Below are positions 1,599-35,086 of a DNA stretch of 42,455 nucleotides, piece after piece. Each line of letters opens with the position of its first letter. The first letter of the stretch is position 1. A program made the position numbers and the translations under genes. This stretch comes from a virus. A model generated the notes under the pieces. That model saw only the letters and a program-made list of their open reading frames with translations, made no database searches and was not told the origin of the DNA. Location of the stretch: the IMG/VR virus record IMGVR_UViG_3300045988_008427, positions 1 to 42,455 of that record. One strand, 5' to 3'.

Positions 1599-1607
1599 AC
1601 CCCCGAA

Positions 1608-6291: not shown

Positions 6292-9200
6292 TTATTCATC
6301 CTTATCGGATAGAGTGTTATAAAGACCCCACTTAAGGAATGGGATGTTCGTGGAATTACGGATAGCTCTTACAGCTTTCTCTTTTTGATTCTCTAGTTGC
6401 TCATCGGTGAAATTTTCATCACCTGTCATACGAGCTACATTAGCAGAGTACCCTGCAATGTCCATGAAAGACTTGATGGTAGAGTATGCAGGAGCCAAGT
6501 CTCTAAACCACTTGTCAACGTCAAAGCCCCCATATAGCTCATCCCGTTCTTTCTGAGTGGAGAAGCCTTCAGTGGTGGTCTTAACGTCAGTGTTAATACC
6601 AAGGGTGTTTAGTGCCAAAGACGGGGCTGCAAAGACGCTAGACCGCATAACACCGTTAACACCAGCCTGAAAAACAGTGTCTAAAGTGAGTCCTTCTTCA
6701 GGGTCATACTTTAGAGTCTTCTTAAGGTACTCCTTTCGTTGTTCCTCGTTCATACCTGTGGTGTTAATAAGGGTGTTAGTCAGTGCACCCAAGGTACCCA
6801 GTGCGGTAGACAAGAAGATACTATAGGCTTGTCCAAGGGCATCGCCCTCAGCCATTCTACCTAGAATTTTCTTAAGTCTCTTATCGTAGGATCTAAGAGC
6901 GAACGTCTTAAACTGCAATAGCAACTGCATAAACGGATTCTTTTGGGCACCCTCCCAAAGGAAAGTGTCACCCAAGGTATTCTTCTGGATTACCTCATGA
7001 GCAACATAGTCGCCCATACGTCTAAGAGTTGCAAGAGCGACAGGATCCTTAGAGAGGATAGCATCAAGGTTATCAATAGTGATTTCCTTGTTCTTACCTA
7101 CGGTAGTGGATTCCTTAAGGATCTTCAGTAGATTATCAAAGTTCTCCTGAGAGATCCCGTTGCGTTGCATAAGCTCCTTATTAAGGAAGCCCTTCTTGGA
7201 GATAGACTTGTTATGAGCGTACTGAATAAGCTCACCCAAGAACATACCTTGAGAAGCCTCAACGATAGAGTTCTCGGTATTCTGAATGAACTTAGTAAAC
7301 GGAGAAGCCTGAGCAAGAGTATCGGTCGCCGCAACAAGAATAGACTTAGCCTTATCGCCATTGAACCTACGTAGTTGCTTCTCAAAAGACTCCGTAGCAA
7401 TGTCTCTAAGTAGACCAGTCTCTCTTACGGACATACCAAAGATAAGAGACTGAGCCTGTCTAAGCTCTTTGTTGGTCATGCCATTCTTAGCCCAATTATC
7501 AAAGAAATCTCTAACAAGAGGGACACCCTTAAAGAAATGCAGGGCACCATAGTGCTTGATTGCTTCACCCTGTTCAAAGAGGTTTGCCATACCCATCATA
7601 GCATTCTTAGAGAAGAACGTAAGGTTTCTGACAACATCCGCCATAGCCCCAAGCCAAGAGCTATTGACATCAGACATGCTATGGTGCTTATTGTAGATCA
7701 TGTTGATAAGTTGTTCCTGAGCTTGTGCAAACTTCTTAGCGTCAACCCTACCACCTACGGCAGAATTAACCTCCTCAGACCACATCTTACCCAGCATACT
7801 CTCAAAGTCGCCCAAGTTCTCACACCCGTAACTAAGGAGGATATTGTCACCAATAACCTTGTTATGGTGCATACGGACAGCCTCAAGAGGATCTCTACGC
7901 ATCTTGTCGATAGACAAACCGCTACGGGTAGTGACAGAGGTATCCCAAGGGATTCTAGTCACCTCGGGGTCGTACTTAATGTTTGCAATGTTACCATCAG
8001 TGATGATAGCCCTACCCATGGAAGTACCTTGGTCAATCCAACCAAGAGCATCCTCCCTAGCTTCTTTCTGCATCCATTCAAGCACATCTACCCAGTCAGG
8101 CTCATCAGGTAGAGGCTCAAGATTATCCTCAAACTTCTCCTGCCTAACCATGTCCTGAGCCTTGTGTTGCTGTCTCTGGACTTCGCTAACCTCTCGTTCC
8201 TTAGCCTTGATCTTATCTGCAGTTTCTTTCTCTACAGCTTCGATCTTCTCAATAATAGAGTCTCTATCCTTAACGAGTTTCTTCTCAAGTTCCTTAAGTC
8301 TCTCGGATTCTCTCTTCTGGATATTCTCTACTCTAGATTCGTAGGATGCCTTCTTGTTTTCTAAGGTATTCTTAAGTCTCTGCTCTTCTGCCTCTACGGC
8401 CTCAAGGAGAGCTTCCTTCTTAGCTTCTTTAGCCTTAAGGGCGTTCTCTTTGAGTTTCTTAGCTCTCTCTACAAGGGTAGTGCTTACGTACTTGTCATAC
8501 CTCTTCTGTGCGGCATTAGCTTGCCCTTCGGTCTCAGCCTTAGACTTAGCCAACTCTTTCTTTAGTTCAGCTTCTTTTCTAAGTCTCTCAATCTCTTTGT
8601 TGATTTCGGCATCAATGTCGGCATCAGAGGTTTTATCGAGTTTATTGTACTCTTTCTCTAGCTCTTTGGTTTTCTTCTCAGATTTAGCCTTAGCTTCCTT
8701 AACAGCATTATTGTAGTCAGCTTCAGCCTTCTCAAGGTCATTAGAGATATCCTCAGAGATCTTATTCTTAGCCTTGTTGTAAGCAGGTTCTAGCTCATTG
8801 TATTTATCAGCTAGATTGTCACCTCTAACATCACCTCTTTCTTGGATACGCTCAATACTTCTTGATGCTTGAGCGGCCTTGTCAGAAATAATCTTATTGG
8901 AAGCCTTAGCTACCTTTTGGTACTTGATGTCCTTTTTCTTGTCTTGCTCGGCAATCTGTGCTTCTCTTTCTGCCTTGAGCTTATCGTAGACATTCTTCTT
9001 GTAGTAGTCAAGGATTCTCTGTCTTACTTCGGGCTTAGCGAGTGCACCATCAACAAGAGCGTGCGAAAGCTCATCAACAAGTCTCTCTACCTGAGGCCCT
9101 CTAGGGAGATTAGGATCAAACAGGTCACCAACCTTTCTAGGATCACTTACTCTAGGGACATAACCACCCCTCTGGCCAGTCTTAGAGGTTTTCTGAAGGA

Positions 9201-10935
9201 AATCCTTAGTAGACTCTACGATCTTACTGAACTCTTCATTACCTACAAACTTGGGAGGGGTTACACCGTTCTCAATAGCCTGACAAATAGCTAGATTGAT
9301 TTCTGCATCATCATGCCCCAGCTTTCTGAGGTTATTGAAGCTATCTCTATAGCCAGACTCAAAGTTCTCAAAGTCAATCTGAGCGGCTCTTAGCTTCTCC
9401 TCTACAGTCTGCCCTTGGAATCTAGTTGCATAATGAACACCGTTCTCGTCAACATAACCAGAACCTCGGTCTACAAAGACAGACTCACAGAACTTTCTAA
9501 AGTTAGTAGACTCAAGAGCCTGAAAGACACCCTTAGTGGACACAAGGGGAACTCTTCGTTCGATGTTGTCAAGAAGGTTGTTCAAGGACGTAGCTACCTT
9601 AGTGGATCCTCCAATACCATCAAAGACCTCAGAGGGAAGATCCTTACCTGCCTCCTGATATTCCCTGATGATTTTGGCTCTACGAGCAGTATCGCCTACA
9701 TAGTGTCCACCCTTACCTAGACCCTTGAATGCAAACTCAATACCTGCACCAAACATGGCACCAACAAGCATGTCTTCCATGAGGTCATGTTCTGCACCAG
9801 ACACATAGGTATCAATCTGATTAGACACAGCGCCCAAAGCGGCACCTGTGAGCACCCTACCTGCCATACCATACGCACCAAGTGCGGGGACATAAGACAA
9901 AGGATCTACAACAGCGCTACCAATAGAAGAAGTAATCGAAGAGAACCAACCGGCTTTAGCTTCAGCCTGTCTATACTTGATTACTTCATCATTAATCTTA
10001 AGTCTTTCTTCGACATCCTCCATCGAAGTAGCACCATTGAGTACAGCATAGTACCTATCCATGTTGTACCCTACCTTGCCTAGGATTTCCCCCCTTTGTT
10101 CATCTGTAGGGGCAAACTGTTCACCAAAGATGCTCCCGTCAGCAAAGGACATCCTAAGGTATGTAGGGACATAACCGTGCTTCAAGCCACCCGTAAAACC
10201 GACCTGAGGCTCATCCGATGTATCCTGAGAAGGGTCATAGACATAACGATTGTCAGCCCAACGCTTTGAGCGAAAACTGATACCGAGAAGTCTACTCCTA
10301 GTAGTATTGACAAGAGCCGCCCTTACAGCATCCTCATCAATAGGATCCTTGATAAAGGGCTTGATCTCCTTAGATGCCTCAGGCAAATCAAGGTTGGTAA
10401 ATACAGGCTTCCTGTCAATCAAGGAATCCTCAGAAGGAGCCGAGGATTTCTCAATATTCGGATTAACTGTTGGGACATCTTCATCTACCTTCTGTTCCCC
10501 CCACCTGTCATCATCACCGATGGTGTCAATGTAATTCCAAGTTTCCTTAGGAAGCTTTTTATAGTTCCCCTTAAGGTAATTCTTCATTGCGGCAGTGCCA
10601 CCGTTGTACATAGCCAATGCCGCATATTGATTGCCCTTAGCGTACTTAAGGTTATCCTTCATAATACGGCCTGCAAGGTCGATGTTAAAGAAGGGATCCT
10701 TAAGGGTACTAAGGTCGGTCACACCATAAGCATTTGCAGTTTTAGGCATGATCTGACCAACACCCATAGCACCTGCACGAGACACAGCGTTAGGGTTAAA
10801 TCGTGATTCTTGATACAGCTGTCGCCTGAATAGGGTATGGTTCAAACCGTATCTCTCAGCAGTATCCTTAATGATACCATCATAGGGATGCTCCGTATTC
10901 TCGAAGTCACCCCAAGCACTACGTCTAGGATTCAT
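6292..10935 (-). CDS. Internal virion protein, T7 gp16-like, with an N-terminal lytic transglycosylase domain
   Basis: An SLT motif is present: QESRFNPNAVSRAGAMGVGQIMPKTA. The size (1547 aa) and the position after the gp15-like gene also fit. Confidence 0.8.
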   Translation of the reverse strand: MNPRRSAWGDFENTEHPYDGIIKDTAERYGLNHTLFRRQLYQESRFNPNAVSRAGAMGVGQIMPKTANAYGVTDLSTLKDPFFNIDLAGRIMKDNLKYAKGNQYAALAMYNGGTAAMKNYLKGNYKKLPKETWNYIDTIGDDDRWGEQKVDEDVPTVNPNIEKSSAPSEDSLIDRKPVFTNLDLPEASKEIKPFIKDPIDEDAVRAALVNTTRSRLLGISFRSKRWADNRYVYDPSQDTSDEPQVGFTGGLKHGYVPTYLRMSFADGSIFGEQFAPTDEQRGEILGKVGYNMDRYYAVLNGATSMEDVEERLKINDEVIKYRQAEAKAGWFSSITSSIGSAVVDPLSYVPALGAYGMAGRVLTGAALGAVSNQIDTYVSGAEHDLMEDMLVGAMFGAGIEFAFKGLGKGGHYVGDTARRAKIIREYQEAGKDLPSEVFDGIGGSTKVATSLNNLLDNIERRVPLVSTKGVFQALESTNFRKFCESVFVDRGSGYVDENGVHYATRFQGQTVEEKLRAAQIDFENFESGYRDSFNNLRKLGHDDAEINLAICQAIENGVTPPKFVGNEEFSKIVESTKDFLQKTSKTGQRGGYVPRVSDPRKVGDLFDPNLPRGPQVERLVDELSHALVDGALAKPEVRQRILDYYKKNVYDKLKAEREAQIAEQDKKKDIKYQKVAKASNKIISDKAAQASRSIERIQERGDVRGDNLADKYNELEPAYNKAKNKISEDISNDLEKAEADYNNAVKEAKAKSEKKTKELEKEYNKLDKTSDADIDAEINKEIERLRKEAELKKELAKSKAETEGQANAAQKRYDKYVSTTLVERAKKLKENALKAKEAKKEALLEAVEAEEQRLKNTLENKKASYESRVENIQKRESERLKELEKKLVKDRDSIIEKIEAVEKETADKIKAKEREVSEVQRQQHKAQDMVRQEKFEDNLEPLPDEPDWVDVLEWMQKEAREDALGWIDQGTSMGRAIITDGNIANIKYDPEVTRIPWDTSVTTRSGLSIDKMRRDPLEAVRMHHNKVIGDNILLSYGCENLGDFESMLGKMWSEEVNSAVGGRVDAKKFAQAQEQLINMIYNKHHSMSDVNSSWLGAMADVVRNLTFFSKNAMMGMANLFEQGEAIKHYGALHFFKGVPLVRDFFDNWAKNGMTNKELRQAQSLIFGMSVRETGLLRDIATESFEKQLRRFNGDKAKSILVAATDTLAQASPFTKFIQNTENSIVEASQGMFLGELIQYAHNKSISKKGFLNKELMQRNGISQENFDNLLKILKESTTVGKNKEITIDNLDAILSKDPVALATLRRMGDYVAHEVIQKNTLGDTFLWEGAQKNPFMQLLLQFKTFALRSYDKRLKKILGRMAEGDALGQAYSIFLSTALGTLGALTNTLINTTGMNEEQRKEYLKKTLKYDPEEGLTLDTVFQAGVNGVMRSSVFAAPSLALNTLGINTDVKTTTEGFSTQKERDELYGGFDVDKWFRDLAPAYSTIKSFMDIAGYSANVARMTGDENFTDEQLENQKEKAVRAIRNSTNIPFLKWGLYNTLSDKDE

Positions 10936-13981: not shown

Positions 13982-14406
13982 TCTTTAATCAATTCCTTTC
14001 TATTAGTTGTTAATAGCATCCACTCTGGAGTAAACTCTTTCTCACATTCCCTTAGGTCAACATTATCAGTTCTAAAGCACATCGTAATGTGCGTGTCTTC
14101 AAGTGCCCTAAAGGCTTGCCTACGACCACTCTCAGCCTTAATGACGTTGTAACCCTTAAGCCTCCCTACAGTATTCCCTAGGGTAACATAACAATCCCCA
14201 CTAACAATTACAGTAGTAGGGATCTGGATGAAAGCTCCAATAATAGCTACATCCTTAGGGATAAAACAGGTTCTGTAATACACCCCTTCATAAACAAAGT
14301 GGTCAATGGGGATCTCAACCTCATTACAGACACAACTCTCCATAGCATGGATTGCAATGTCGCAAAGCAAATTGTTCTGCTCAGGAGTTAAGGGTTTCAA
14401 CTTCAT
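13978..14406 (-). CDS. Hypothetical protein in the T7 gp13 position
   Basis: ATG-started ORF of 142 aa, overlap-coupled to both neighbours. Confidence 0.5.
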   Translation of the reverse strand: MKLKPLTPEQNNLLCDIAIHAMESCVCNEVEIPIDHFVYEGVYYRTCFIPKDVAIIGAFIQIPTTVIVSGDCYVTLGNTVGRLKGYNVIKAESGRRQAFRALEDTHITMCFRTDNVDLRECEKEFTPEWMLLTTNRKELIKE

Positions 14407-16895
14407 ACGCTACTATTCCTTCTAATGTAAAGACCTTCCCAACCACCAGAAATAAGGTTAACAGGTTGGACGTTATCGGAGCATACAGTAATGACTACTT
14501 CATCATTATTGTCTTGGATCGGGAACTTAAACTTACCCGTGTAAACCTTGTTAGCACCCAAGATAGTCGGGGATTCGCCAAGGTTCCTGCCAGTAAACCT
14601 ATACTTAAAGTGCTTATCCTTAAGGTCGTTATTGACCTTACATTCAAATACACCAGAGTTACTATAGTTAAACCAGAAGTACCTAAGCTGTAGTCTACCT
14701 TCAATCTCGGAGATAACACCGCCAGTATCCGTATTCCTCTTAATGGCCTGCTTAGAGAGAGTTACACAGAATTTGTAGGTAAGACCCACAAACACCTCAA
14801 CACCCCTCATGTCCCCTTGGAGTCTAAAGACACCATTGGAATCCCAGTCGGCAACCTCAGTAACGTAACCGTCTTTAGTGACAATGAAATACTTATGATC
14901 CTTAGTAGACGGGATAGCACCGTAGATGTCCTTAAGAGATACCTCAGTGTAATCCTCATAGTCACTGTACTTGTTTGACTGAGGAATCGTGTATTTCTTC
15001 TTACGGTCCATAAAGAGCCTAGTGGGCTCATCAGAGAAGTCAACGGCATTACCTGTCAGCAAGGCTTTCTCTAGATAAAGACCATTCGGAGAGTTGATGA
15101 GAAGATAAATCTCTGAGTCAACAAACTCCGCTAGGAGAACCTCAGAATTCTTGTTTGCAAATTCCCACTTGAACCAAGCCTGTTGCTCACTAGTGGCGTT
15201 AACAAGAATAAACTTATAACAATATACGGTATTGGGAGTAGTAGAAGAGATAGCCGTAACTACATTCTCCGTGGTGTTCCCAGAGAGTCTTGTGATGCCC
15301 TTAGGGATGTACGTAGGCACATGTGCGGCTACGTCTTCAGCATCCTTTAGGTCAGCTACGTCCTGCAAGGAGTAGTAGCGCATCAGGGAGCAGTAGTTTA
15401 CTCGATCATTTACAAAGAAGATCGAAGGACCAATAGAGATAGGTTGGACGTTCGTATCGTAGTCAAAGTTAGTGATTTGGTCACATTTGACACTCTTAGG
15501 AGTCATGACGCCATCACTAGACAAGACAAACTGACCTTCGCGGGAGAACAACATAAGCTCTCTAGCAAAGGGAACAGCATGAGTCAGGATGGCAACCTTA
15601 TTCGAGGAGACAGAAACGTCAATAGGGTCAGTGTCCGCAATAGCCGCAGAGGACTTAAACCAGAAATTAAAGAAGTCATTGGTTGCACTAAGGATAATGG
15701 ACTCATCCGAGATTACCCCTAGGCGATTACGGTAGAAGAAGATGTCATTGATCTTCCTACCAATAAACGAAGGATCAGGGTTAGTGTCTTCATTACCTGC
15801 ACCTCTATCAACCCACGGGAGCTTCTTAAGAAGAAAACTTCCATCCTCCTGCCTAACAATAGCATGAGGCATATTCTTAGGGTTAATCTTAGTGGGAATC
15901 TTAGGTGCTACAGTTTCCTTCCACACCTTATGTTTGTCATCCCACTTTACATAGAAGTCATCATCTTCGGAATTCTTTTCCCCAGACACCTGCATGATGT
16001 AACCATCAGGTGCAATCGGAGGGAGCTTATTAACAGCTGTAACCTTACCAATGTAGGCAATAGCGTTCTGGTTACCAAAGCCGTCCTTAACGAGGACATT
16101 GGGAGGATCCCAACCAGACTTAGACTGAATCGTAATAACAGAGTCACCTACTAGGCCTACGTTATAGGAGCTCATGCTTCCACTAGACCTAGAGTAACCC
16201 ATAGACGATCTACCACCCACCTGATTCAAAAGGTCATCATAGGTGCCGCCAACGTCAGGATCATCACCATCAGGTTTCTTACCGGTCTTAAGGAGGGAAT
16301 ACAATGCTCTTGCAATAAAGGCAGTAGTAGTCTGAACAGCTTGCTTAGCTTCACCACCATCAGGGGTAATAACGCCACACATATACTTACCTTCGACATA
16401 AATGGCGTAAGTCTTAGCATACTGAGCATTCTTGATGTACACTAGAGCAGTATCCTTTTTACCCGCTGGGGAGTCACCCTCTACAGCGTCTACCTCCTTC
16501 TCAGTGTTCAAGACAAAGGTGTAGTCAGCAACAGTAACTGCCTTTAGTTTGCCCCTAGGGTCACTAGTGGTGATGTACTTTTTGGACTCGTCATCTTCAA
16601 ACTTGCAAGTCTTAGGCACACCATTAAGATCAAAAATCTGGTATTCCCCAGACCCCATCTGGAGAATGTACTTTTCCTGTTCGTCTCTATTGATTACATG
16701 ATACTTCTTCTTTGTAGCATCAACACGGTCGGACAAGCGTTTGACTGCAAGAGTCGGAGGTCTCTTTTGGAGACCCTCAACTTCATTAGGGAACCCGTTG
16801 ATAAGCTCAGTTACCTGATCGGGGAATCTGATGATGTCAGGTTGTTGAGAGACACCACCTTTGAATGAATGGATGCTTTGAGATACTAGAGGCAT
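14403..16895 (-). CDS. Tail tubular protein B, T7 gp12-like
   Basis: The N-terminus MPLVSQSIHSFKGGVSQQPDIIRFPDQ...EGLQKRPP closely parallels T7 gp12 (MALISQSIKNLKGGISQQPDILRYPDQ...EGLQKRPP). Confidence 0.9.
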   Translation of the reverse strand: MPLVSQSIHSFKGGVSQQPDIIRFPDQVTELINGFPNEVEGLQKRPPTLAVKRLSDRVDATKKKYHVINRDEQEKYILQMGSGEYQIFDLNGVPKTCKFEDDESKKYITTSDPRGKLKAVTVADYTFVLNTEKEVDAVEGDSPAGKKDTALVYIKNAQYAKTYAIYVEGKYMCGVITPDGGEAKQAVQTTTAFIARALYSLLKTGKKPDGDDPDVGGTYDDLLNQVGGRSSMGYSRSSGSMSSYNVGLVGDSVITIQSKSGWDPPNVLVKDGFGNQNAIAYIGKVTAVNKLPPIAPDGYIMQVSGEKNSEDDDFYVKWDDKHKVWKETVAPKIPTKINPKNMPHAIVRQEDGSFLLKKLPWVDRGAGNEDTNPDPSFIGRKINDIFFYRNRLGVISDESIILSATNDFFNFWFKSSAAIADTDPIDVSVSSNKVAILTHAVPFARELMLFSREGQFVLSSDGVMTPKSVKCDQITNFDYDTNVQPISIGPSIFFVNDRVNYCSLMRYYSLQDVADLKDAEDVAAHVPTYIPKGITRLSGNTTENVVTAISSTTPNTVYCYKFILVNATSEQQAWFKWEFANKNSEVLLAEFVDSEIYLLINSPNGLYLEKALLTGNAVDFSDEPTRLFMDRKKKYTIPQSNKYSDYEDYTEVSLKDIYGAIPSTKDHKYFIVTKDGYVTEVADWDSNGVFRLQGDMRGVEVFVGLTYKFCVTLSKQAIKRNTDTGGVISEIEGRLQLRYFWFNYSNSGVFECKVNNDLKDKHFKYRFTGRNLGESPTILGANKVYTGKFKFPIQDNNDEVVITVCSDNVQPVNLISGGWEGLYIRRNSSV

Positions 16896-16897: not shown

Positions 16898-17473
16898 TTA
16901 GCTCCTCTGAATCTGTTGGCTAATGAACTGGTCACCATTGAGGATGTTGTAATTACCATCCGTAAGTTCATAGTCTACAATGTCTGCATAAGCCGCACTC
17001 TCTTCCAATTGAAGATGTGCATCAATATCAGCAGAGGTAAGGTACCTCATCTGAAATACTCTACTGGCTCTAACAGTAATATACTTTCTGAAGACCTGAG
17101 GAAGCTCCTCAAAAGGGAGCTCCCTGACAAGTTCATCCAGAGTAATGCCTTCAGGGAACTCTAGAGCCCCTGAATCAAGATCATAAAAATAGCCTTCTCT
17201 GCTTACGAACTTATAGCTAGTAGAGACAGCCCTAAGGAAGTCTCTACCGTAAGCAACTTTGTTAGTAAAAGAGTCAGGCTTCAAGGTAACACTGGTGAGA
17301 GTGTTAAAGCTGTAACCCCTAGACTGGATCTCTTGACTGACAGCCTTAAGGATTCTTACAGCATTCAGAACATCCACATTAGCATCATCCTCAAGAGAAT
17401 TAACAGGACTAGAGCCTACGGATGACAAAATTTCATTCACTGCATCAAGTTCAGTGCTAGGAGTGACAATCAT
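16898..17473 (-). CDS. Tail tubular protein A, T7 gp11-like
   Basis: ELDAVNEILSSVGSSPVNSLEDDANVDVLNAVRILKAVSQEIQSRGYSFN parallels the T7 gp11 N-terminal region. Confidence 0.9.
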   Translation of the reverse strand: MIVTPSTELDAVNEILSSVGSSPVNSLEDDANVDVLNAVRILKAVSQEIQSRGYSFNTLTSVTLKPDSFTNKVAYGRDFLRAVSTSYKFVSREGYFYDLDSGALEFPEGITLDELVRELPFEELPQVFRKYITVRASRVFQMRYLTSADIDAHLQLEESAAYADIVDYELTDGNYNILNGDQFISQQIQRS

Positions 17474-17649: not shown

Positions 17650-18498
17650 TTATTCTTCCTGAGCGGCCTTAACAAAGATACCAACGGCTTCAGGACGAAG
17701 ACCACCGTGTCCCATCGCGTACTTCGCAATGATCTGGTCAGCCTGATATTCAGCACGGCGAGCACGTTCCATAGCAAGATCCTTCAGCTTAACCGTACCA
17801 ACAGCGGAGCGGTGGAACACGATACCCTGAAGACCCGCAGTCTTGATCTTAGCGTTGAGAGCATGCTTGCCATCAATACCGTCATTCAGGAGGTGCGGAA
17901 CTTCAATGACTTCAAAGCCGCAAATCGTCTGGAGCTTACCCGTGTTCGGGTCAAAGAGAGCGTGGTAGTTAGCGGCATCGGGCATGAGAGCCTTCATCAC
18001 AGCAGAGTAACCTTCAGGCGTGAGAAGGCAATAGCGGTCACCCTGCGGGACATAGTTCTTCGTCATCTGAGCACGAGCCGCAAGGAGACCCTCAAGGATC
18101 TTATTGCCATACGTAGCTTCCTGCGTAACATCAAGACCCGTAACGAATTCAAAGGCCTTACCCGTACCGAGAACCTTGTCAGCGCCCGTACCATTGTCGG
18201 GAATATTACCATCCTTGAACGTAGCGTCCTTAGCGGCCTCATTGGCAAGCTCATTGATAATAGCACAGTCAGCGCCCATAGCGAGAGCTTCACCAAGCTG
18301 ACGGGAATACTCAACTCGAACGTCATAATGGTTCATCGCATCGTCGATATCCGTGATAAGGCAGTCAGCCGTAAGGAGACCGTCAATGGCGATGACACGT
18401 TCATTGTGTTCCATCTTCTTACGCTGGTCATCAAGGGAGTTACCCGGAGCAAGATACTTAGCACGGGTACGACCCATCACAGCGAACGAGGCACTCTT
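17650..18498 (-). CDS. Major capsid protein, T7 gp10-like, exon 2 (282 codons)
   Basis: KSASFAVMGRTRAKYLAPGNSLDDQRKKMEHNERVIAIDGLLTAD...DDAMNHYDVRVEYS...HRSAVGTVKLKDLAMERARRAEYQADQIIAKYAMGHGGLRPEA parallels T7 gp10A from about residue 56 to the C-terminus. The GTG start at 18516 given by the ORF track lies inside the intron. Confidence 0.85.
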   Translation of the reverse strand, partial: KSASFAVMGRTRAKYLAPGNSLDDQRKKMEHNERVIAIDGLLTADCLITDIDDAMNHYDVRVEYSRQLGEALAMGADCAIINELANEAAKDATFKDGNIPDNGTGADKVLGTGKAFEFVTGLDVTQEATYGNKILEGLLAARAQMTKNYVPQGDRYCLLTPEGYSAVMKALMPDAANYHALFDPNTGKLQTICGFEVIEVPHLLNDGIDGKHALNAKIKTAGLQGIVFHRSAVGTVKLKDLAMERARRAEYQADQIIAKYAMGHGGLRPEAVGIFVKAAQEE

Positions 18499-19176
18499 CA
18501 ATGCCTCACGTTTCACATAGACGTTACTCTATGCTCCAAATAGGATGCTGTGGAATCCTATTCAGCATACGGTTTCCCGTATGTTCAGACTATATCTTAA
18601 CAATTGTTCCCATGCCCTTCCAAATATCGGATAGCACTTTCTAATCTATAAGGAGAGTCCTTAAGAAGACCTATTGCAGTATTACACTGCATGCAAAGAA
18701 TTCCTCGTAGTTTACCTGTCTTGTGGTCGTGGTCTGCCGCAGGTTTTGTATAGCGTGAACTGCCAAGCTCACACCCACAAATAGCACATTTACCGCCTTG
18801 CAAGATCCAAGCCCTTTCGTAGGCTTCAGAAGACCATCCAGTAGCATTAAGACGGATCTTAGCTTTCACACATTCTTTACACGAGTTTCGAATACTAATG
18901 TATTCTTCACCATTCTTTTGCTTGTCCTTGCGAATATAGAAGTCATCTACGGGTTTCTTCTGTCCGCAAGTAGCACAAATCTTCCAGCCTCTTTCGAGAG
19001 CTTCTTTAATATTTTTACGCAATTGTTGTTCCCATTTCGAGTACCACTTGGTACCCTACGTTATAAAACTAGTCGTTGAACCTTCCCTTCTTTCGATAGG
19101 GCTTGGCTTCTGATTGGCGTAGGAATTACCCCTTAGCTTTCCAGAAGTTAAAGAACTTTAGGCACAGCAAGACTTA
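18499..19176 (-). mobile_element. Group I intron (678 nt) in the major capsid gene, carrying a homing endonuclease ORF
   Basis: The 5' exon ends in U and the intron ends in G. P1 pairs exon CACGGU with intron GCUGUG (19163..19168). P10 pairs UCUU with exon-2 AAGA. Core elements are P CUUCUGGAAAG (19137..19147), Q AAUCAGAAGC (19106..19115), R GUUCAACGACUAG (19069..19081) and S AAGAUAUAGUC (18588..18598). P/Q (CUUCUG/CAGAAG) and R/S (GACUA/UAGUC) are complementary. Confidence 0.8.
18597..19022 (-). CDS. Intron-encoded HNH / endonuclease VII family homing endonuclease (141 aa)
   Basis: CAICGCEL...ADHDHKTGKLRGILCMQCNTAIGLL is the Endonuclease_7-type signature, and an N-terminal CxxC...CxxC pair is present. 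There is no in-frame ATG, so the only candidate start is TTG at 19022. The stop codon overlaps intron element S. AAA and AAG Lys codons are about equal, unlike the capsid exons. Confidence 0.75.
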   Translation of the reverse strand: MRKNIKEALERGWKICATCGQKKPVDDFYIRKDKQKNGEEYISIRNSCKECVKAKIRLNATGWSSEAYERAWILQGGKCAICGCELGSSRYTKPAADHDHKTGKLRGILCMQCNTAIGLLKDSPYRLESAIRYLEGHGNNC

Positions 19177-19341
19177 ACCGTGCGAGATCGTTCGAACCTG
19201 ATGACGAGACATCATAACGGAGGTGCGGGAGAAAGCAGTCAGAACTTCACCCGTGAAGACCTTCATAAAGAGTGCATCACGATCGCCCGCAGATAGAGCC
19301 TGACCAGGATTAGAAATACCAGTAGCAGCAAGAGCAGCCAT
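19177..19341 (-). CDS. Major capsid protein, exon 1 (55 codons)
   Basis: Hand translation gives MAALAATGISNPGQALSAGDRDALFMKVFTGEVLTAFSRTSVMMSRHQVRTISHG, followed by an in-frame TAA inside the intron. It parallels T7 gp10 ...AAGDKLALFLKVFGGEVLTAFARTSVTTSRHMVRSISSG. It is below the ORF-track cutoff. Confidence 0.85.
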
Positions 19342-19393: not shown

Positions 19394-20179
19394 TTAGACA
19401 CTAGTGGCCCACATTCTCTGTTCGACCTGTCGGGTGTATTCAGGATCCCTGCCATAGCGCTTATCGCTCATAGCCTCGATCACTTCAGATTTGTTTGCAA
19501 ACCCCTTAGGACGATTCACAGGAGTGGCCGTACCGCCATGAATAGACTTATTAGCAGTACCCATCTTGGAAGTCATCTTAGACTTCATGCCTTCAAGCAT
19601 GAGGGAAACAGCTTCCAGATTATTGTTGTCGATTGCTCTGTTAAAGGAGTCAATCGTCTTCTGAGGGAGATTCTTGGATGCCCAATCGACAATACGATTG
19701 TACTCCTTAGTACCCCCTACGGAATCATAAACAGCTTCAGTGAAGCGAGATTCAAGAGCCTTTCGACTCTCAATGAAACCCTCGATAACCTCAGAAGGAT
19801 AACCTGCCTTCTCAAGTTCAGCAACGGTTTCATCAGAGAGCTTACCGCTCTCCTGATATTCTCGGACAGCCTTATTGAAGTCAACACCCTTTTCCTTAAG
19901 GGAGGTCTTCACGGCATCAATAGCCTTTTCGTGCTTGTCTACTTCTTCCTGAAGATTCTCTTGATCTTCATTTCGATCATGAACAGCCACATCATCAGCG
20001 TGACCTTCAGTTCCATTAGCTTGTTCTTCATTATGTTCTTCCCCCGACTTTTCGTTCTGAAGAAGGGGGTCTCCAATATCAGGGTCAACCTCAACCTGAG
20101 TCGTAGAAGACTCAATGATCTCGATACCCTGTGCTTCAGCCTCCTCAGTGAGAGACTGAGGTTCATTAAAGTCAGTCAT
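19394..20179 (-). CDS. Scaffolding protein, T7 gp9-position (acidic)
   Basis: 261 aa, strongly acidic, located between the portal and capsid genes. Confidence 0.7.
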   Translation of the reverse strand: MTDFNEPQSLTEEAEAQGIEIIESSTTQVEVDPDIGDPLLQNEKSGEEHNEEQANGTEGHADDVAVHDRNEDQENLQEEVDKHEKAIDAVKTSLKEKGVDFNKAVREYQESGKLSDETVAELEKAGYPSEVIEGFIESRKALESRFTEAVYDSVGGTKEYNRIVDWASKNLPQKTIDSFNRAIDNNNLEAVSLMLEGMKSKMTSKMGTANKSIHGGTATPVNRPKGFANKSEVIEAMSDKRYGRDPEYTRQVEQRMWATSV

Positions 20180-20221: not shown

Positions 20222-21802
20222 CTAGCTTGCTAGCTGTGCTTCATTGACAGCCATCTGTGCACCTGCGTCAATACCCTGTTGCTGGGCATACTGTTCCATA
20301 GCGGCCTGCTGTTCTGCCTGAAGTTCTTCAGGAGTCTTAACTAGACCCGTAGCGTCAATATGAGCCGCCGCAAAGATCCTAGTAGCAAGATTGCCGACAT
20401 TAAGAGCCTGCATAAACTCAGGGAACTGTTGCATCAACTGCAAAGCCTGAGCTAGATTATTAAGATCCTGTCCTCGACCAAGGGCATCAATACCCGTGAT
20501 GATGGTAGGTTCAATCTCTGCAATACTCTCGTCAACCACAGGGAGCAAACCCTGAGATTGCATCTGATTGTAGATACAGGCAACAATAGGAAGCTGTAGC
20601 TCCTGAGACAGGAGAGAATAGACACCGCCTAGGGTATCCTCTAGCTCACCCGCAACGTACCTAATCTCTTCTGCGGTAACTCTGTCTCTACCCATAGCAC
20701 CACTCTGGACTGCAGAGTTCAAGAGGAACGCATAAGACAAACGAGACTCAATCTGTTGAGCAGTAGTGAGTACCGTCTGCATATCCATGCTCTTATTGAG
20801 TTGCATGGGAACAACGTCCTCCATACGACCCCTAACAAAAGCACCGTTCTCCGCCTTAGACAAAGCCCTGATGTTGGTCTGACAAGCAGGAGACACGAGG
20901 TAGAGAACCTTAGAGGCAATCATAGAGATATCCACAATGCTCTTAGAAAGGTTCTCAAGAGAGACAAGGTCACCTAGGTAATCCTCAACAAAGGATCTAC
21001 CGTAGTGCTCGCCGTCCTTCTTGTTGAATCTAAGAGGAATCCAAGGACTCTTGTTTGCAGGATAAGTCTGCTCACTACCTGCGACAGGCTCGCCTTCAAT
21101 CTCCTGATAGGATTCCCACTGATAGGTGTCGCCACTAGCTACTCGGTAAATGTGAGTATAGATGTCGACCTTTTCGTTGATAGTCGGTTCACCAGAATCT
21201 GGGAGAACAGACTGCATGGAATCAGGAAGACTACCGCGGGAAACAGTGTCCTTAGCAACAATCTGAAGGACATTGCCAATAGTGTCTCTCTGAACAGTGT
21301 ACTCACGAAGAGTGTAGCACCTCATACCACCTTCAGCAGGAGGTAGGAACAGAAGTGCATTGCCTGCAATGATAAGTTGCTTAATAGCTTCAAACAGAGT
21401 CGGTCTAAGAGACTGAGACTCCATATACTTAATCATCTGTTGTTCCATCATGGACAAACCGTATTCGATATTGTCCTTCATCTGGTCATCAGCAGACTCA
21501 TTAAGAGCTACCGTAGACTCCGAGTCCAACCCCAGTCTAAAGAAAGGTTGATTAGGAGGCAACAGAGAAAGAAGAAGTTTAGAGGCAAGATTATTAAGAC
21601 CCCTAGCACCCACAGAATTGTAAGGAGTGGAATAGTTAGTACCACCATCATCAGACTCCTTAGGAAAGAGCATAGGGATCGTGTAGGTCGCACACTTTTC
21701 TGCTCTCTGAGTGTATGGGTCTCTGTCTGTCGTGAGTTTGTCATAGGTCGTCTTAGCTCCTTCAAGAGGGATATTACCTGCCTGATGTTCAGCACTAGCC
21801 AT
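20222..21802 (-). CDS. Portal (head-tail connector), T7 gp8-like
   Basis: ARGLNNLASKLLLSLLP, TLFEAIKQLIIAGNALLFLP and VTAEEIRYVAGELEDTLGGVYSLLSQELQLPIV closely parallel T7 gp8. Confidence 0.92.
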   Translation of the reverse strand: MASAEHQAGNIPLEGAKTTYDKLTTDRDPYTQRAEKCATYTIPMLFPKESDDGGTNYSTPYNSVGARGLNNLASKLLLSLLPPNQPFFRLGLDSESTVALNESADDQMKDNIEYGLSMMEQQMIKYMESQSLRPTLFEAIKQLIIAGNALLFLPPAEGGMRCYTLREYTVQRDTIGNVLQIVAKDTVSRGSLPDSMQSVLPDSGEPTINEKVDIYTHIYRVASGDTYQWESYQEIEGEPVAGSEQTYPANKSPWIPLRFNKKDGEHYGRSFVEDYLGDLVSLENLSKSIVDISMIASKVLYLVSPACQTNIRALSKAENGAFVRGRMEDVVPMQLNKSMDMQTVLTTAQQIESRLSYAFLLNSAVQSGAMGRDRVTAEEIRYVAGELEDTLGGVYSLLSQELQLPIVACIYNQMQSQGLLPVVDESIAEIEPTIITGIDALGRGQDLNNLAQALQLMQQFPEFMQALNVGNLATRIFAAAHIDATGLVKTPEELQAEQQAAMEQYAQQQGIDAGAQMAVNEAQLAS

Positions 21803-23026: not shown

Positions 23027-23791
23027 TTAAAAGGGGTTGTACTTCTTAGGTAGACCCTCAGATTCACTTAAAGGGTAATCTTCATAGTGCAAGATTCTAG
23101 CCATTGTTGCCTCTCTAATGGCATCCTCTTCAGTAAGACCCTGAGACTTGAAGGCTTTCAAAACCTCAGGCCACCATTCAGAATCAGGGTGCCCATTAAG
23201 GAGCTTATTGGCTTTCACAGGGCCATAAGTGGGACATCCCTTATAGCCGTCTGTAACGTCCCCTACTAGGGTCTGGTAGCACAGCCATTTCTTGGAGTCC
23301 TTCTCAGTGATGTTATGCAAGACATCATTACCGAAATCATAAAAGTAACCGGGGATTGTCTTGAAATCCTTGTCCATAGACACTGAGACACAAATATCTT
23401 TATAGACAGGACTAGTGCAGTAGATACCCACAACATCATCAGCTTCAAGATACTTGACTGTATAAGAAGTGTAGGTTTCTTTAATCTTGTCTACTAGACC
23501 TTTGTAACAACAAGGTTTACGACTAGATCTCCTATTGGACTTATAGTCAGGATTGTAGGATTTCCTAAAGTTATCCTCATCGGAGAAACAGAATACATAG
23601 GTAATCTCTTCACCAATAAAATGCTTAGCCAGTTTTTCATCAATAGCAATAAGCATGTCGGTAAAGTAATCCCATGCGTCATCCACTTCGGCATGGCAAG
23701 TCCAAAGACCATCACCCCAGTCGATGTCCTTCTGGACAGCAGAGGATGCCTTAAAGGCTAGAATGTCACCGTCTACAAAAGCATACCGCAT
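23027..23791 (-). CDS. 5'-3' exonuclease, T7 gp6-like (FEN/PIN-type)
   Basis: The N-terminal FVDGDILAFKA acidic site and LVGDVTDGYKGCPTYGPVKANKLL (an H3TH-like motif) are present. It lies downstream of the DNA polymerase. Confidence 0.8.
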   Translation of the reverse strand: MRYAFVDGDILAFKASSAVQKDIDWGDGLWTCHAEVDDAWDYFTDMLIAIDEKLAKHFIGEEITYVFCFSDEDNFRKSYNPDYKSNRRSSRKPCCYKGLVDKIKETYTSYTVKYLEADDVVGIYCTSPVYKDICVSVSMDKDFKTIPGYFYDFGNDVLHNITEKDSKKWLCYQTLVGDVTDGYKGCPTYGPVKANKLLNGHPDSEWWPEVLKAFKSQGLTEEDAIREATMARILHYEDYPLSESEGLPKKYNPF

Positions 23792-24325: not shown

Positions 24326-26242
24326 TTAGTGACAAGAATACCAGTTGGTACCAATCTTACCTTCGGTGTCCAACTGACAGTTAAAATTAAAGAACTTCTG
24401 AGTCTGCCTCATGGATTCCTGTGCAATCCTTACACAGTCCTCTGCGATTTCCTTGGTTCTACAAGCTACCTGAACCTCATCATGCACCCATGCCATCATG
24501 GCAAAATCACCGTCCCAACCGTGCTTGTACCCAGCCTTACGCATGTTCTCCTCAACAAGGCATACCCATTTCTTGCAGATAAGGGCACCTGCAGATTGCA
24601 ACAGGGTATTCAGAGCCGAGTGAGGGCTTCGCACATAAACAACGCGACGATCAAGCCCAAGAATACTGTGAGTAATACTAAGATTACTGTTATCAGGGTG
24701 AGCACGTTTCCTCCAAGTTACCTTATTGACACCTCCGACCCATTCAGAGGATGTGATGAGAGTCCTTTCAATATCTGAACAGAGTTCCTTATAGGCAGGT
24801 ACTGCATTAAAGAACCTCTCCTTAAGAGCCTTACCGTCCTTTGCAGTGCCGTTGATGACTTCTCCGAGCTTACCGTCGCCACCACCGTACATCATACAGT
24901 AGATCATAGTCTTCGCTTGATCTCTTGTAGGCAACCCTGCCATCTTCTGGTTATGAGTATGAATGTCACCATTCAAGATCTCATTTACGTATTCCCCATG
25001 GTCATAAGGGTAGAGAAAATGAGCAAAGCACCTAAGCTCAAGACCTGAAGCGTCGATGCCCGCCTCATACCATCCAGTAGGGACTCTAAAAAGAGACCTG
25101 CATTCCTCCCCATAAGGAGATCTACCTGCAGGTACCTGTGCAACATTAGGATAAGCATGAGTTGCACGACCAGTGACAGCCCCATTAGGATTAACAGAAC
25201 CGTGAATGCGAGTGTAACCATCAGGATCCTCCTTCATCAACTTTAGCCACGCATTGTCACCCTCAGCAAGCTGTGCAATACGCTTGTTAATAAGCAAATA
25301 CTCCAAGATGTCCTCAGTAATGTCAATATCCTTAGCAGTCTTCAGAGTCTCTTCGTCAACCTTAGGGGCACCCGTAGGAGTCATTTCAGTAGGCTCCCAG
25401 CCTCGATCCATGAGAACCTTTGCAATGTGTTGGCGACTATTGGGGTTAAAGGTAACCTCTTCATACTGAGGGTAAGGGACACCTGCCTTAATGCCACGCT
25501 TAGCGTTATCTCGCTTATAGATCTTGTCTCCCTTATAGACAGTCCAAGATCCACCTTTTGAAACAAGGTTCTCATAAAGAACCTGTCGCTTACCTGACAA
25601 TTCGGAATATAGTTTGACTGCTTGATCTTTATCAAAGACAAACCCATTGCGTTCTTGCTTAGCCATCACCCAAGCAATGTCATGCTCAAGTTGGATAGCC
25701 TTCAAAGGGTAACCCTTAGCCATCAGCTTATTGAAGAGCTTATGGGTAACCACAACGTCCTGCTTGTTGTACTCATACATCTCATGAGTAAACTTGTCCC
25801 ATGCGTCCTCATGTTCGCCATAGGTGCCCTTCAGTTCACCCATACGGTAACCATAAGCCTTCAAGCTGTGGGAACCATAGAGAGCCTTAGGGAGCTTTCC
25901 AGAACGCATAAGACCAACGTCAGTGTCCTTGATGTTCGAGTAGATCAGACGGGCAAGAACAAGAGTGTCAATACATACATCTCGAACATCAAATGCAAAT
26001 CTCTCACCCTTAAGCTTCTTAAGAGCAGGGATGTCGAATTTGCAGATATTGTGGCCAACAATGTTGTATCCACTAGTCCCATACTTATTCAGCACATCAA
26101 AGAACTCATCAAGATCCGTGTAACCAGTGTACAAATCAGTATAAGAATCGTACAACCAACCACACCAGAACCTCTTAGTGGTGTCTAACAGTCCGTCTGT
26201 TTCAATGTCTGTAATAACGAATTTGTCTTTAATTGTCAGCAT
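24326..26242 (-). CDS. DNA polymerase, family A, T7 gp5-like
   Basis: Exo I is ITDIETDGL, motif A is DASGLELR, motif B is KTMIYCMMYGGG and motif C is VHDEVQ. At 638 aa it is shorter than T7 gp5. Confidence 0.92.
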   Translation of the reverse strand: MLTIKDKFVITDIETDGLLDTTKRFWCGWLYDSYTDLYTGYTDLDEFFDVLNKYGTSGYNIVGHNICKFDIPALKKLKGERFAFDVRDVCIDTLVLARLIYSNIKDTDVGLMRSGKLPKALYGSHSLKAYGYRMGELKGTYGEHEDAWDKFTHEMYEYNKQDVVVTHKLFNKLMAKGYPLKAIQLEHDIAWVMAKQERNGFVFDKDQAVKLYSELSGKRQVLYENLVSKGGSWTVYKGDKIYKRDNAKRGIKAGVPYPQYEEVTFNPNSRQHIAKVLMDRGWEPTEMTPTGAPKVDEETLKTAKDIDITEDILEYLLINKRIAQLAEGDNAWLKLMKEDPDGYTRIHGSVNPNGAVTGRATHAYPNVAQVPAGRSPYGEECRSLFRVPTGWYEAGIDASGLELRCFAHFLYPYDHGEYVNEILNGDIHTHNQKMAGLPTRDQAKTMIYCMMYGGGDGKLGEVINGTAKDGKALKERFFNAVPAYKELCSDIERTLITSSEWVGGVNKVTWRKRAHPDNSNLSITHSILGLDRRVVYVRSPHSALNTLLQSAGALICKKWVCLVEENMRKAGYKHGWDGDFAMMAWVHDEVQVACRTKEIAEDCVRIAQESMRQTQKFFNFNCQLDTEGKIGTNWYSCH

Positions 26243-26524: not shown

Positions 26525-28180
26525 TCAAAACTCCGATTCAAAGGGGCAATCTTCAGACCCCTGTGGGCAATCCTTGAGTCTACCTGTTTCAGGATCATAC
26601 TCAAGGTATCCACTGATACCAGTGTCCCCGCAAAAGCGATTCTTGAGGACTCTGAGAGTCAACACGTTAGGATTATCACCCTGTTGATTTCTCTCAAGGC
26701 CAATCACCATGTCAGAGAGCTGTGCAATAGCTCCAGACCCTCTAAGTTGACTAAGGGATACCTGTGCCCCCTCTTCGTGTCCCTTCTTCTCAGGACGCTT
26801 AAGGTGAGATACTACGAACATGGTAGCTCCAGTCTCTTCCACAAGGGAACGAAGGTTTGTCATGAGCTTGTCAATAGCTTTACGCTCACCACCATCCTCA
26901 TCGGCATCCATGCCAGAGACCACAATGGAGATATGGTCAAGGAAGATACGCTTGCATCCTAGGGACACAATCATGTACCTAAGTTTACTAAGCAGATTAC
27001 CTGAATCAAGTGAGCCAAAATGGTCGTATAGGAAAAATTTTCCATTCCCAATTGTTTCATTAAAAGCTCTGCCTCGTTCATCTTCATCTGCACCCTCAGG
27101 GTCGAGTATGAGTCGCTTATTGAGATGAATCGACATGAGTTCCAACCCAGTTTTTCGAGTAGATTCTTCAAGAGCAACAATTCCGCAAAGTTCTCCCCGC
27201 TGAACACCAAAGTAGTATTCGAGTTCTCTGAGGATTGTGGATTTACCCATTCCACTACCACTTGTGAAGACATACAGTTCACCATGTCTAGCTCCTTTAG
27301 TTTTGTTCTGAAGTGCAACCCAAGGGTACTCAACAGAGTCCTTGAGGTCGTCAATGTCAGTTACGCACTTCTCATACAAGTCTGTACCTGAAACAATTCC
27401 GTCGGGTCTGTACGGCTTGGCATTCCACACAGCTTGAAGAACCTCAGGACCCTTGCCTTCACTAAGGCATTCATTAGGATCCTTACAAGGAAGATTAGCA
27501 ATATATGCCTTACCTGCAGGCAGTATCTTTGCACACTCTTCACTTGCTTTTCTACCCGGATCATCCATGTCAAACATTAGGATGACTTCTTCGAAATTTC
27601 CTAAATACTCAAGGTTGGCCTCAATAGCCTTCTTTGCCCCTTGTGCCCCATTAGGGATACTCACAACAGGCCACTTGTTACCCTGAAGTTGGCTCACAGT
27701 AAGACAATCAATCTCACCTTCAGTGATGACAATCTTCTTACCACTAGCCCACAATTGGGAACCATAAAGCCTATTAGAGATACTCCCAAGGACAGCAAAG
27801 GACTTATCGGGGAACCTGAGCTTCTGCCCCACAAGGTTCCCCGAATCGTCGTAGTAGCACGCTACTTGGCAAGGCTTCCCTTTGTAAACAGTAGAAAAAT
27901 ACTTGAATTTAGAGCAAGTATCTTTACTAATACAGCGCTTAGTAAGGGAAACCTCTTCAAGATCTCCTAGAGGAATACAATCCTTAGACACTCTAACCAC
28001 CTCACTCTTTACAGACCCATCAGTCTTTACAGACCCATCAGTCTTTACAGACCCATCAGGTCTAAAATAAGTATTACAAGAATAACAAAACCTATGGCCA
28101 TCACTAAAGACGCCACAGGCGTCAGAGGAGCCACACTTAGGACAAGGTTCATGATAAAGGAATGTACTCTCTTTATTCAT
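26525..28180 (-). CDS. Primase-helicase, T7 gp4-like
   Basis: The zinc finger is CPKCGSSDACGVFSDGHRFCYSC. A TOPRIM region (ITEGEIDCLT...MFDMDDPG) and Walker A (TSGSGMGKST) are present. Confidence 0.92.
   Translation of the reverse strand: MNKESTFLYHEPCPKCGSSDACGVFSDGHRFCYSCNTYFRPDGSVKTDGSVKTDGSVKSEVVRVSKDCIPLGDLEEVSLTKRCISKDTCSKFKYFSTVYKGKPCQVACYYDDSGNLVGQKLRFPDKSFAVLGSISNRLYGSQLWASGKKIVITEGEIDCLTVSQLQGNKWPVVSIPNGAQGAKKAIEANLEYLGNFEEVILMFDMDDPGRKASEECAKILPAGKAYIANLPCKDPNECLSEGKGPEVLQAVWNAKPYRPDGIVSGTDLYEKCVTDIDDLKDSVEYPWVALQNKTKGARHGELYVFTSGSGMGKSTILRELEYYFGVQRGELCGIVALEESTRKTGLELMSIHLNKRLILDPEGADEDERGRAFNETIGNGKFFLYDHFGSLDSGNLLSKLRYMIVSLGCKRIFLDHISIVVSGMDADEDGGERKAIDKLMTNLRSLVEETGATMFVVSHLKRPEKKGHEEGAQVSLSQLRGSGAIAQLSDMVIGLERNQQGDNPNVLTLRVLKNRFCGDTGISGYLEYDPETGRLKDCPQGSEDCPFESEF
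28006..28059 (-). repeat. Perfect 18-bp x3 in-frame tandem repeat inside the primase-helicase gene
   Basis: TCTTTACAGACCCATCAG occurs 3 times on the plus strand. It encodes DGSVKT DGSVKT DGSVK between the zinc finger and the primase core. Confidence 0.95.
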
Positions 28181-29026: not shown

Positions 29027-29162
29027 TATCTTCCTCATCATAGTCGTCATCTTCATCCTCATCGTCTTCATCATCAAGGGACTCAAGATATTCCTGATAC
29101 TCGTCTTCCCAACGAGCTTCCCAATCAGATTCCATTCGATCAAGTTCCTTCTGAGTCTGCAT
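29016..29162 (-). CDS. Small highly acidic protein (48 aa)
   Basis: Hand translation gives MQTQKELDRMESDWEARWEDEYQEYLESLDDEDDEDEDDDYDEEDNDY. A GAGAGG SD lies upstream, and the stop overlaps the thyX ATG (ATGACTACTAA). Confidence 0.5.
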   Translation of the reverse strand: MQTQKELDRMESDWEARWEDEYQEYLESLDDEDDEDEDDDYDEEDNDY

Positions 29163-29191
29163 AATAGCCTCTCTTTTAAAAAAATAAAATG

Positions 29192-34985: not shown

Positions 34986-35086
34986 AGGGGTCACCTCTAG
35001 TTATATCTATAGATCTTTTATACTCTGTTATATTCTTTTATATAGGGTTATATAGGTGATGATGTAGGATATTACACATAGTTAAA

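Follow-up and report, generated by a model that had tools for sequence, protein, structure and literature searches.

The DNA analysed here, the whole of which is referred to as the window, is the 42,455 nucleotide (nt) IMG/VR virus record IMGVR_UViG_3300045988_008427 (positions 1 to 42,455). It is a complete T7-like phage genome whose recognised genes lie on the minus strand. With high confidence, a mobile group I intron of the phage IA type, which carries a homing endonuclease, splits the major capsid gene of the phage after codon 55 (Table 1). A group I intron with an endonuclease VII (Endo VII)/HNH open reading frame (ORF) had been proposed at this place in an earlier note made from the sequence alone, and the proposal is borne out by a match to the Rfam family RF00028, an intron-less allele, covariation among homologues, a patchy distribution and a conserved ORF. 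Elements of this kind, mobile group I introns that sit in an essential phage gene and carry an HNH/Endo VII homing endonuclease, are well known, and the present one reveals no new kind of mechanism. In the literature the insertion site seems to be undescribed, yet it is common in gut-phage metagenomes.

Exons and exact junction of the capsid gene

As the earlier note stated, the list of ORFs holds only a fragment of the capsid gene, 17650..18516, which corresponds to 288 aa called from a GTG at 18516. The missing N-terminus had been assigned to a 55-codon ORF (19341..19177) running straight into a TAA, and this stop codon is found at 19176..19174. Joining 19177 to 18498 restores the capsid frame as proposed (...RTISHG/KSASF..., the slash here and below marking the junction) and gives a protein of 337 aa with a Pfam Gp10A-like match of 1.1e-65. 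The proposed colinearity with T7 gp10 was also seen, since the alignment with gp10A (2xvr, 345 aa; 5e-102) passes through the junction without a gap (RHQVRTISHGKSASFAVMGRT in the spliced capsid against RHMVRSISSGKSAQFPVLGRT in T7). The intervening sequence, 19176..18499, is exactly 678 nt, and both ends are as predicted, with exon 1 ending in U and the intron in G.

Alignment with an intron-less homologue had been named beforehand as a check, and the human-faecal phage contig MT838157.1 (L001) provided it. The DNA of this contig is 94–95.5% identical on both sides of the junction and continuous exactly at 19177/18498, the aligned blocks adjoining at 2455/2456 of L001. The boundary cannot slide in either direction, because the intron and exon 2 begin with different bases, and the intron and exon 1 end with different bases. 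With tblastn the uninterrupted L001 capsid protein is recovered as a single piece, 97.9% identical to the spliced product. Judged by this allele and by the colinearity with gp10A, precise removal of the 678 nt puts the host gene back in frame. Two more distant contigs, MT836074 and MT835557, are intron-less too. An intein could be ruled out, as the TAA follows directly after exon 1 and the inserted ORF is differently arranged, with a stop of its own.

Anatomy of the ribozyme

The search with RF00028, a second check named beforehand, gave a score of 72.3 bits, where the gathering score is 50, and an E-value of 1.4e-16 over the whole window. The match (19204..18566, minus strand) covers positions 1–253 of the 253 in the model and places the long insertion in the P8 loop. 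The guide pairings that had been suggested were found at both splice sites. For P1, GCUGUG(C) (19168..19162) forms 7 bp with (G)CACGGU (19183..19177), including U19177.G19168 at the splice site, and for P10, UCUU at 19172..19169 pairs with AAGA at 18498..18495 in exon 2 through 4 bp. The core elements P, Q, R and S that had been pointed out are likewise present and equal the strands of P4 (UUCUGG with UCAGAA) and P7 (GACUA with UAGUC).

The structure derived from the Rfam alignment and the homologues lacks P2, and most of its helices were recovered independently by RNAfold of the ORF-deleted intron. P7.1 and P7.2, situated between the 5' strand of P7 and the 3' strand of P3, are a feature of the phage-type subgroup IA; the finer subgroup, IA2 or other, can only be presumed from the similarity to the T4 nrdB intron. 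A hairpin across the 3' splice site covaries in the homologues (GAAGCA with UGCUUC, GAUGC with GCAUC), its exon side being positions +6 to +11 of exon 2. As the third base of the Ala58 codon covaries with the intron, the intron appears to constrain a capsid codon.

Homologous introns and covariation

With the intron ORF as query, 80 loci were retrieved from IMG/VR. In 32 of them (L005–L036 minus L027, which has an aberrant 3' end, plus L041) the endonuclease is 47–95% identical to that of the window, and all 32 lie inside capsid genes split at residue 55/56, with capsid identities from 98% down to about 30–45%. The loci with endonucleases below about 42% identity (L037–L084) lie outside capsid genes. 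Five representative homologues pass the RF00028 threshold with 62.5–72.4 bits, and an in-frame stop 0–2 codons from the 5' splice site is kept in every homologue group. When the intron was compared by blastn with 50,697 phage records only short core matches appeared (T4 nrdB, phiKZ-like and others), with no close relative among the cultured phages. In L027 the last ~25 nt of the intron (around 2980..3003) are divergent.

Covariation was studied in an alignment of 23 distinct sequences, in which the ORF loop was replaced by GAAA and 12 nt of each exon were kept; P8 was curated by hand in divergent groups where automatic detection had failed. Base-pair cells are paired in 90.9% of cases, against 36–44% when the partners are slid by 1–3 columns. 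Both sides have changed in 49 of the 83 pairs (13–22 in the slid controls) and in 253 cells (29–55 in the slid controls), values reached by 0 of 500 shuffles. Strong covariation was found for P1, P10, P3, P4, P6a, P7.1, P7.2, P8, P9, P9.1 and P9.2. All cells of P9 are paired (100%), and compensatory change affects 6 of its 7 pairs and every pair of P6a, P7.1 (3 pairs) and P7.2 (5 pairs). The weakest helix is P5, 74% paired, while P7 is uninformative because it is invariant. The compensatory changes at 49 pairs indicate that selection still maintains the fold.

The guide sequence follows the exons. The U.G pair of P1 and the neighbouring G-C pairs are invariant in 23/23 sequences, and three P1 pairs and two P10 pairs show compensatory change. 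Thus P1 is formed by CACGGU with GCUGUG, UACGGU with GCUGUA, CGAGUGGU with GCUGCUCG and CGUCUGGU with GCCUGACG, and P10 by UCUU with AAGA, GAUUU with AAAUC, CUUUU with AAAAG and UGCGCU with AGCGCA.

The intron-encoded endonuclease

The 141-aa reading frame had been described as a DHDH...CN, Endo VII-type HNH ORF between elements R and S, and it matches PF02945 (Endonuclease_7) with 2.5e-20; its location can be given more precisely as the P8 loop. Its other reported traits were also recovered. There is no in-frame ATG, TTG being the only canonical start, the stop (TAA, 18599..18597) overlaps S (18598..18588), and the lysine codons differ from those of the capsid gene, with AAA/AAG at 8/8 in the ORF against 0/20 in the capsid. 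The GC content at third codon positions differs as well (0.35 vs 0.51). The closest solved relatives are the restriction enzyme Hpy99I (residues 14–136, 6.9e-9) and T4 Endo VII (residues 67–123, 4.8e-6), and the alignment to the two spans CAICG...DHDH...CMQCN.

Among 28 distinct variants, none of them interrupted, two N-terminal CxxC pairs, KCAICG, DHDHKTGK and C..CNT are invariant. The dN/dS (ratio of nonsynonymous to synonymous rates) of 0.145 over 55 pairs in the window's clade signifies purifying selection; only within-clade values were used, as dS between clades is saturated. This low value argues against decay of the ORF. A second copy of the ORF was not found in the window. As a T7 endonuclease I is encoded by the phage as well, this Endo VII-type protein is probably a homing enzyme and not the resolvase, an argument likewise used for T7-like phages (PMC6083498). 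Features of the Endo VII/HNH homing class found here are zinc-binding cysteines, the D-H...N residues, an intron-encoded position and a sporadic occurrence among close relatives. The predicted product may cleave or nick the intron-less capsid allele. The endonuclease of Synechococcus phage S-RIP1, 44% identical, was considered as a counterpart and set aside, being free-standing between the RNA polymerase and single-stranded DNA-binding protein genes and not in a capsid gene.

The reading frame opens after a TAG at 19058..19056. The TTG start supplies the final three bases of the 5' strand of P8, and the last three sense codons make up the 3' strand, an arrangement which suggests that translation would be weak and occluded by structure. 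Other clades have an ATG at the TTG position (AACAAUGA) or just past P8, and an in-frame AUG in the conserved GAAAUGG segment too. A mini-ORF reading MGTTIA overlaps the endonuclease TTG start in the window's clade, which is set apart by this frame shift at the start of the ORF. In the T4 introns ribosomes need to be kept out of the ribozyme core, and the in-frame stops near the 5' splice site fit such a need.

Distribution of the intron among capsid alleles

Among 83 related capsid genes (80 from IMG/VR and 3 from GenBank) the intron is present at the site in 8 while 75 are uninterrupted. Near-identical introns, with about 94–95% endonuclease identity, are found in capsid genes whose products are only 74–78% identical to that of the window (e.g. 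L005–L007), which points to horizontal transfer between lineages. When comparing the closest alleles, those with the intron always read CAC GGT/AAG AGT, and most of those lacking it differ from this by CAT or CAG at -4 and by TCN, also for serine, in place of AGT at +4..+6. Five synonymous differences to L001 fall in the last 19 nt of exon 1. The codon pattern at the junction fits co-conversion or target-site variation.

Proposed splicing and homing pathway

In the late capsid transcript the guide UCUUGCUGUGC would form P1 with the last bases of exon 1 and P10 with the first bases of exon 2. External guanosine would attack after U19177 and the freed exon 1 after G18499, so that the joined exons would encode the 337-aa capsid protein. 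The UAA at the beginning of the intron, being in frame, would halt ribosomes before they enter and unfold the ribozyme core. From the P8 loop the 141-aa Endo VII/HNH endonuclease with an N-terminal Cys4 module would be produced, probably at a low level and in competition with ribozyme folding, as the UUG and the purine-rich stretch upstream of it are buried in P8 and P3. During mixed infection the endonuclease would cut intron-less capsid alleles near the 55/56 junction, and repair off intron-carrying genome copies would bring in the intron and, with it, a short stretch of exon sequence at its flanks.

Weighing of alternative explanations

Some points weigh against the interpretation as a mobile, self-splicing intron. 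Splicing, cleavage and homing are deduced from sequence. Both the alignment and the structure behind the covariation counts were derived by hand from the window and its relatives, so that the unslid register is favoured, although the effect, especially in the both-side changes, appears far larger than such a bias. The codon pattern flanking the junction could partly reflect the pairing constraint of P1 and P10. In the window's clade the AUG of the GAAAUGG segment (19035) is out of frame and opens only six codons (MGTTIA-stop, 19035..19017); with no ATG and a weak UUG alone remaining, expression of the ORF may be low. Finally, L027 has an A and not a G directly before exon 2 (..TTAAAATCA/AAGAGT), and may be a degenerate copy or have a shifted 3' splice site.

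Of the other explanations, the one that survives best, though it is unlikely, is that the intron splices but is immobile, its ORF being maturase-like, co-opted or weakly expressed and its patchiness resulting from loss and not gain. The weak UUG in P8 and the out-of-frame ancestral AUG of the window's clade agree with this, and patchy presence alone cannot tell gain from loss. However, the catalytic DHDH..N and the zinc cysteines are invariant at the dN/dS given above, the near-identical introns sit in capsids as diverged as those of L005–L007, and the switch from AGU to TCN serine beside the junction fits gene conversion. HNH/Endo VII intron ORFs are moreover known as homing enzymes and not maturases (PMC6083498).

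It is very improbable that the insertion is an inert or decayed relic, the capsid gene then being a pseudogene in a defective or mis-assembled genome or in a helper-dependent phage. Such a relic would agree with an ORF that has no ATG and an ancestral AUG out of frame, and with L027 lacking the terminal G. On the other side, the core elements are all intact and matched over the full length of RF00028, the 49 compensatory pairs speak for selection that continues, the exons are intact and encode a protein 97.9% identical to that of an uninterrupted allele, and the arrangement recurs in >30 otherwise complete ~42-kb phage contigs. A T7-like phage presumably needs its single essential major capsid gene, and there is no second copy in the ORF list of the window.

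We know of no precedent for a split in the N-terminal region of a capsid protein, which counts against a free-standing endonuclease gene between two separately translated pieces of a two-piece capsid protein without splicing. That arrangement is the least credible of all even though Ralstonia phage GenBank records list two 'major head protein' coding sequences flanking an 'endonuclease VII' (PMC8703784), for at KSASF exon 2 offers neither a start codon nor a ribosome-binding context, the sole upstream start (GTG 18516) lies inside P9.2 and adds unrelated residues, and about 250 nt outside the ORF are conserved as a group I fold with guides matching both exons.

Comparison with known phage introns

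The earlier note had mentioned group I introns within DNA polymerase genes in some T7-like phages, and these are indeed documented (PMC6083498, PMC4925675; Bonocora & Shub 2004 and 2009, as cited in PMC6083498); for the LUZ24 intron splicing in vivo is described (PMC10914365). They share with the capsid intron a phage lineage with its own RNA polymerase, the ribozyme type, the endonuclease family and a presumed homing, and differ in the host gene, which is gene 5 and not the major capsid gene 10. With Rfam no intron was detected in the DNA polymerase region of the window (24326..26242), and blastn against the phage collection gave no nucleotide similarity between the window's intron and these introns. 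The note's uncertainty as to whether the capsid position had been described was fair, as the literature searched contained no description of a capsid-gene intron in T7-like phages.

The T4 nrdB intron is about 83% identical to the window's intron over 54 nt comprising the R region and its flanks. With T4 nrdB, td and nrdD (sunY), of the phage IA2 group, the intron shares P7.1/P7.2 between P7 and the 3' strand of P3, an endonuclease ORF and an in-frame stop soon past the 5' splice site. I-TevIII of the nrdB intron is also of HNH type. The T4 introns differ in residing in genes of nucleotide metabolism, whereas the ORF of the window lies in P8 and encodes an Endo VII/Hpy99I-type enzyme whose N-terminus bears a Cys4 module.

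Introns in capsid genes have been documented in mycobacteriophage LittleE (gp13) and lactococcal phage Tuc2009, splicing in LittleE being shown by reverse transcription PCR and N-terminal sequencing across the junction; the LittleE intron is only tentatively called group I (PMC3706429). Shared with these is an intron with a putative homing endonuclease in the major capsid gene, the most highly expressed late gene. The phage families (siphoviruses), capsid sequences and insertion positions are unrelated, and there is no relationship between the intron sequences.

A further counterpart was found in Ralstonia phage DU_RP_I (NC_047888), where an unannotated, 515-nt group I-like intron lies in the capsid gene (L004 2872..3386). 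The same intron is present in RsoP1EGY, vRsoP-WF2/WM2/WR2, PY04L1 and PY065YO380 (Autographiviridae, Gyeongsanvirus). It too splits a T7-like capsid gene in the same conserved motif (RTISSGKSAQFPV), with an Endo VII-type ORF that is 41% identical to that of the window and likewise placed in P8. It has its own P1 (GGCCGACU with AGUCGGCU) and P10 (GAACUG with CAGUUC), and its spliced capsid of 314 aa is colinear. The locus gave no match to RF00028 at the gathering score; a permissive local search gave 40 bits (E = 1.7e-8), and since this is below the gathering score the intron is treated as related and not as an Rfam-proven member. Different are the site, KSA/QFP, 9 nt downstream of the window's HG/KSA, the shorter length and the lack of P7.1/P7.2 and P9.1/P9.2. 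The GenBank deposits read 'major head protein (55 aa) / endonuclease VII / major head protein', and the pieces were published as 'capsid and scaffold protein / endonuclease VII / major capsid protein' with the intron unmentioned (PMC8703784).

With insertions at HG/KS in gut phages and a shorter one 9 nt downstream in Ralstonia phages, the guides of each being matched to its junction, it is tentatively suggested that the motif RTIS(H/S)GKSA(S/Q)F is a recurrent landing pad, and that one Endo VII-type lineage has been captured by, or moved between, ribozyme scaffolds. If both enzymes cut the same capsid target, these introns would form a natural series of endonuclease–intron association and site shift. 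Such a history would resemble the 'collaborative homing / invasion' pathway proposed from the T7-like DNA polymerase introns, and would add to it a covarying intron–exon hairpin that constrains capsid codons.

Consequences for annotation and further use

Gene callers give only a truncated capsid ORF at such loci, and recognition of the intron repairs the capsid annotation in T7-like phages of gut and soil. The intron also matters for marker-gene phylogenies, which make wide use of the capsid gene, as signs of gene conversion are seen in the junction region. With this finding the most highly expressed late gene joins the DNA polymerase gene as a site of mobile group I introns in T7-like phages. 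Each virion, with its T = 7 capsid, needs 415 copies of the capsid protein, so splicing would have to be very efficient. The homologue set, with >20 distinct sequences, rich covariation, natural alleles with and without the intron and an intron at a neighbouring site, suits the study of homing-site choice, co-conversion and the coupling of translation and splicing. The endonuclease itself is a candidate sequence-specific nuclease related to Hpy99I.

A second insertion in related capsid genes

A second insertion into the capsid gene, of about 890 nt, was observed in L008 (3811..4703) after residue ~317 (..QIIAKYA/MGHGGLRPE..). It is also present in L009, L010, L012, L016, L025 and L027 and is lacking in the window; further loci match capsid residues 1–317 only (e.g. 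L111, L115, L116 and L119). The L008 insertion holds a 257-aa ORF with two LAGLIDADG-like motifs (VAGFVDADG and LAGYIDGDG). The exon frame changes across the insertion, and the ORF leaves no more than ~90 nt free at the 5' side and ~30 nt at the 3' side. A search for Rfam families in this insertion gave none even at E <= 1. It may be a divergent intron with an ORF overlapping its core, or something else, and could represent a further, unclassified splicing element in the same capsid gene.

Genome and setting of the phage

The remaining recognised genes are given with the elements of the intron in Table 1.

Table 1. Positions in the window of the capsid exons, the elements of the intron and other phage genes
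Feature	Position	Strand	Remarks
Split capsid gene	17650..19341	-	
Capsid exon 1	19177..19341	-	55 codons, MAALAATG...RTISHG; 5' splice site after U19177
Exon strand of P1	19183..19177	-	last 7 nt of exon 1, GCACGGU
Group I intron	18499..19176	-	678 nt; opens with in-frame stop UAA (19176..19174), terminal G 18499
Internal guide sequence	19162..19172	-	UCUUGCUGUGC
Catalytic core, 5' part	19028..19156	-	
P3	19156..19151 with 19033..19028	-	
P4	19146..19141 with 19113..19108	-	
P5	19137..19131 with 19123..19117	-	
P6	19107..19106 with 19081..19080	-	
P6a	19101..19095 with 19090..19085	-	GAAA loop, bulged A
R element and P7 5' strand	19081..19069	-	
P7	19074..19070 with 18592..18588	-	GACUA with UAGUC
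P7.1	19069..19060	-	
P7.2	19054..19041	-	
P8 5' strand	19020..19027	-	AACAAUUG; pairs with 18606..18599; includes ORF start codon UUG
Endo VII-type HNH ORF	18597..19022	-	141 aa; P8 loop; TTG 19022..19020, stop TAA 18599..18597
P8 3' strand	18599..18606	-	CAAUUGUU; last sense codons of ORF and first stop-codon base
S element	18588..18598	-	AAGAUAUAGUC; J8/7 and P7 3' strand; invariant in 23/23 homologues
P9	18583..18566	-	GAAA loop
P9.1	18561..18540	-	
P9.2	18533..18516	-	
Hairpin across 3' splice site	18488..18507	-	intron GAGGCA 18507..18502 with exon 2 UGCCUC 18493..18488
Exon strand of P10	18498..18495	-	first 4 nt of exon 2, AAGA
Capsid exon 2	17650..18498	-	282 codons and stop, KSASFAVMGRT...AAQEE
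Intron-less site in MT838157.1			GTGCGTACTATCTCTCATGGTAAGAGTGCTTCGTTCGCT
Terminase	38788..40557	-	
Single-subunit RNA polymerase	32349..34994	-	
T7 endonuclease I	30525..30977	-	PF05367, 1.5e-67
Amidase	29927..30517	-	
Primase-helicase	26525..28180	-	
DNA polymerase	24326..26242	-	
Exonuclease	23027..23791	-	
Portal	20222..21802	-	
Scaffold	19394..20179	-	
Tail tube	16898..17473	-	
Nozzle	14403..16895	-	
Internal protein with SLT domain	6292..10935	-	
Tail fibre	3917..6283	-	

The phage is part of a large and diverse population of ~42-kb T7-like human gut phages (L001–L003 and L005–L175), stemming mostly from IMG sample 3300045988 and also from Mexican faecal contigs. The closest cultured capsid relatives, at about 60% identity, infect Delftia and Ralstonia, and that the bacterial host is a gut member of the Burkholderiales is only a guess.

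Genes for tRNA-Leu(UAG) and tRNA-Arg(UCU) were observed on the minus strand at 29192..29275 and 29407..29483, between the amidase and a ThyX-like gene. The ORF of the latter (28184..29221; Pfam Thy1, 2.6e-16) overlaps the tRNA-Leu, and its real start must therefore be further downstream. The plus strand, which holds none of the recognised phage genes, has an ORF of 518 aa at 96..1652 for which Pfam gave no match. This ORF may be spurious, or it may be a gene of unusual orientation at one edge of the permuted genome.

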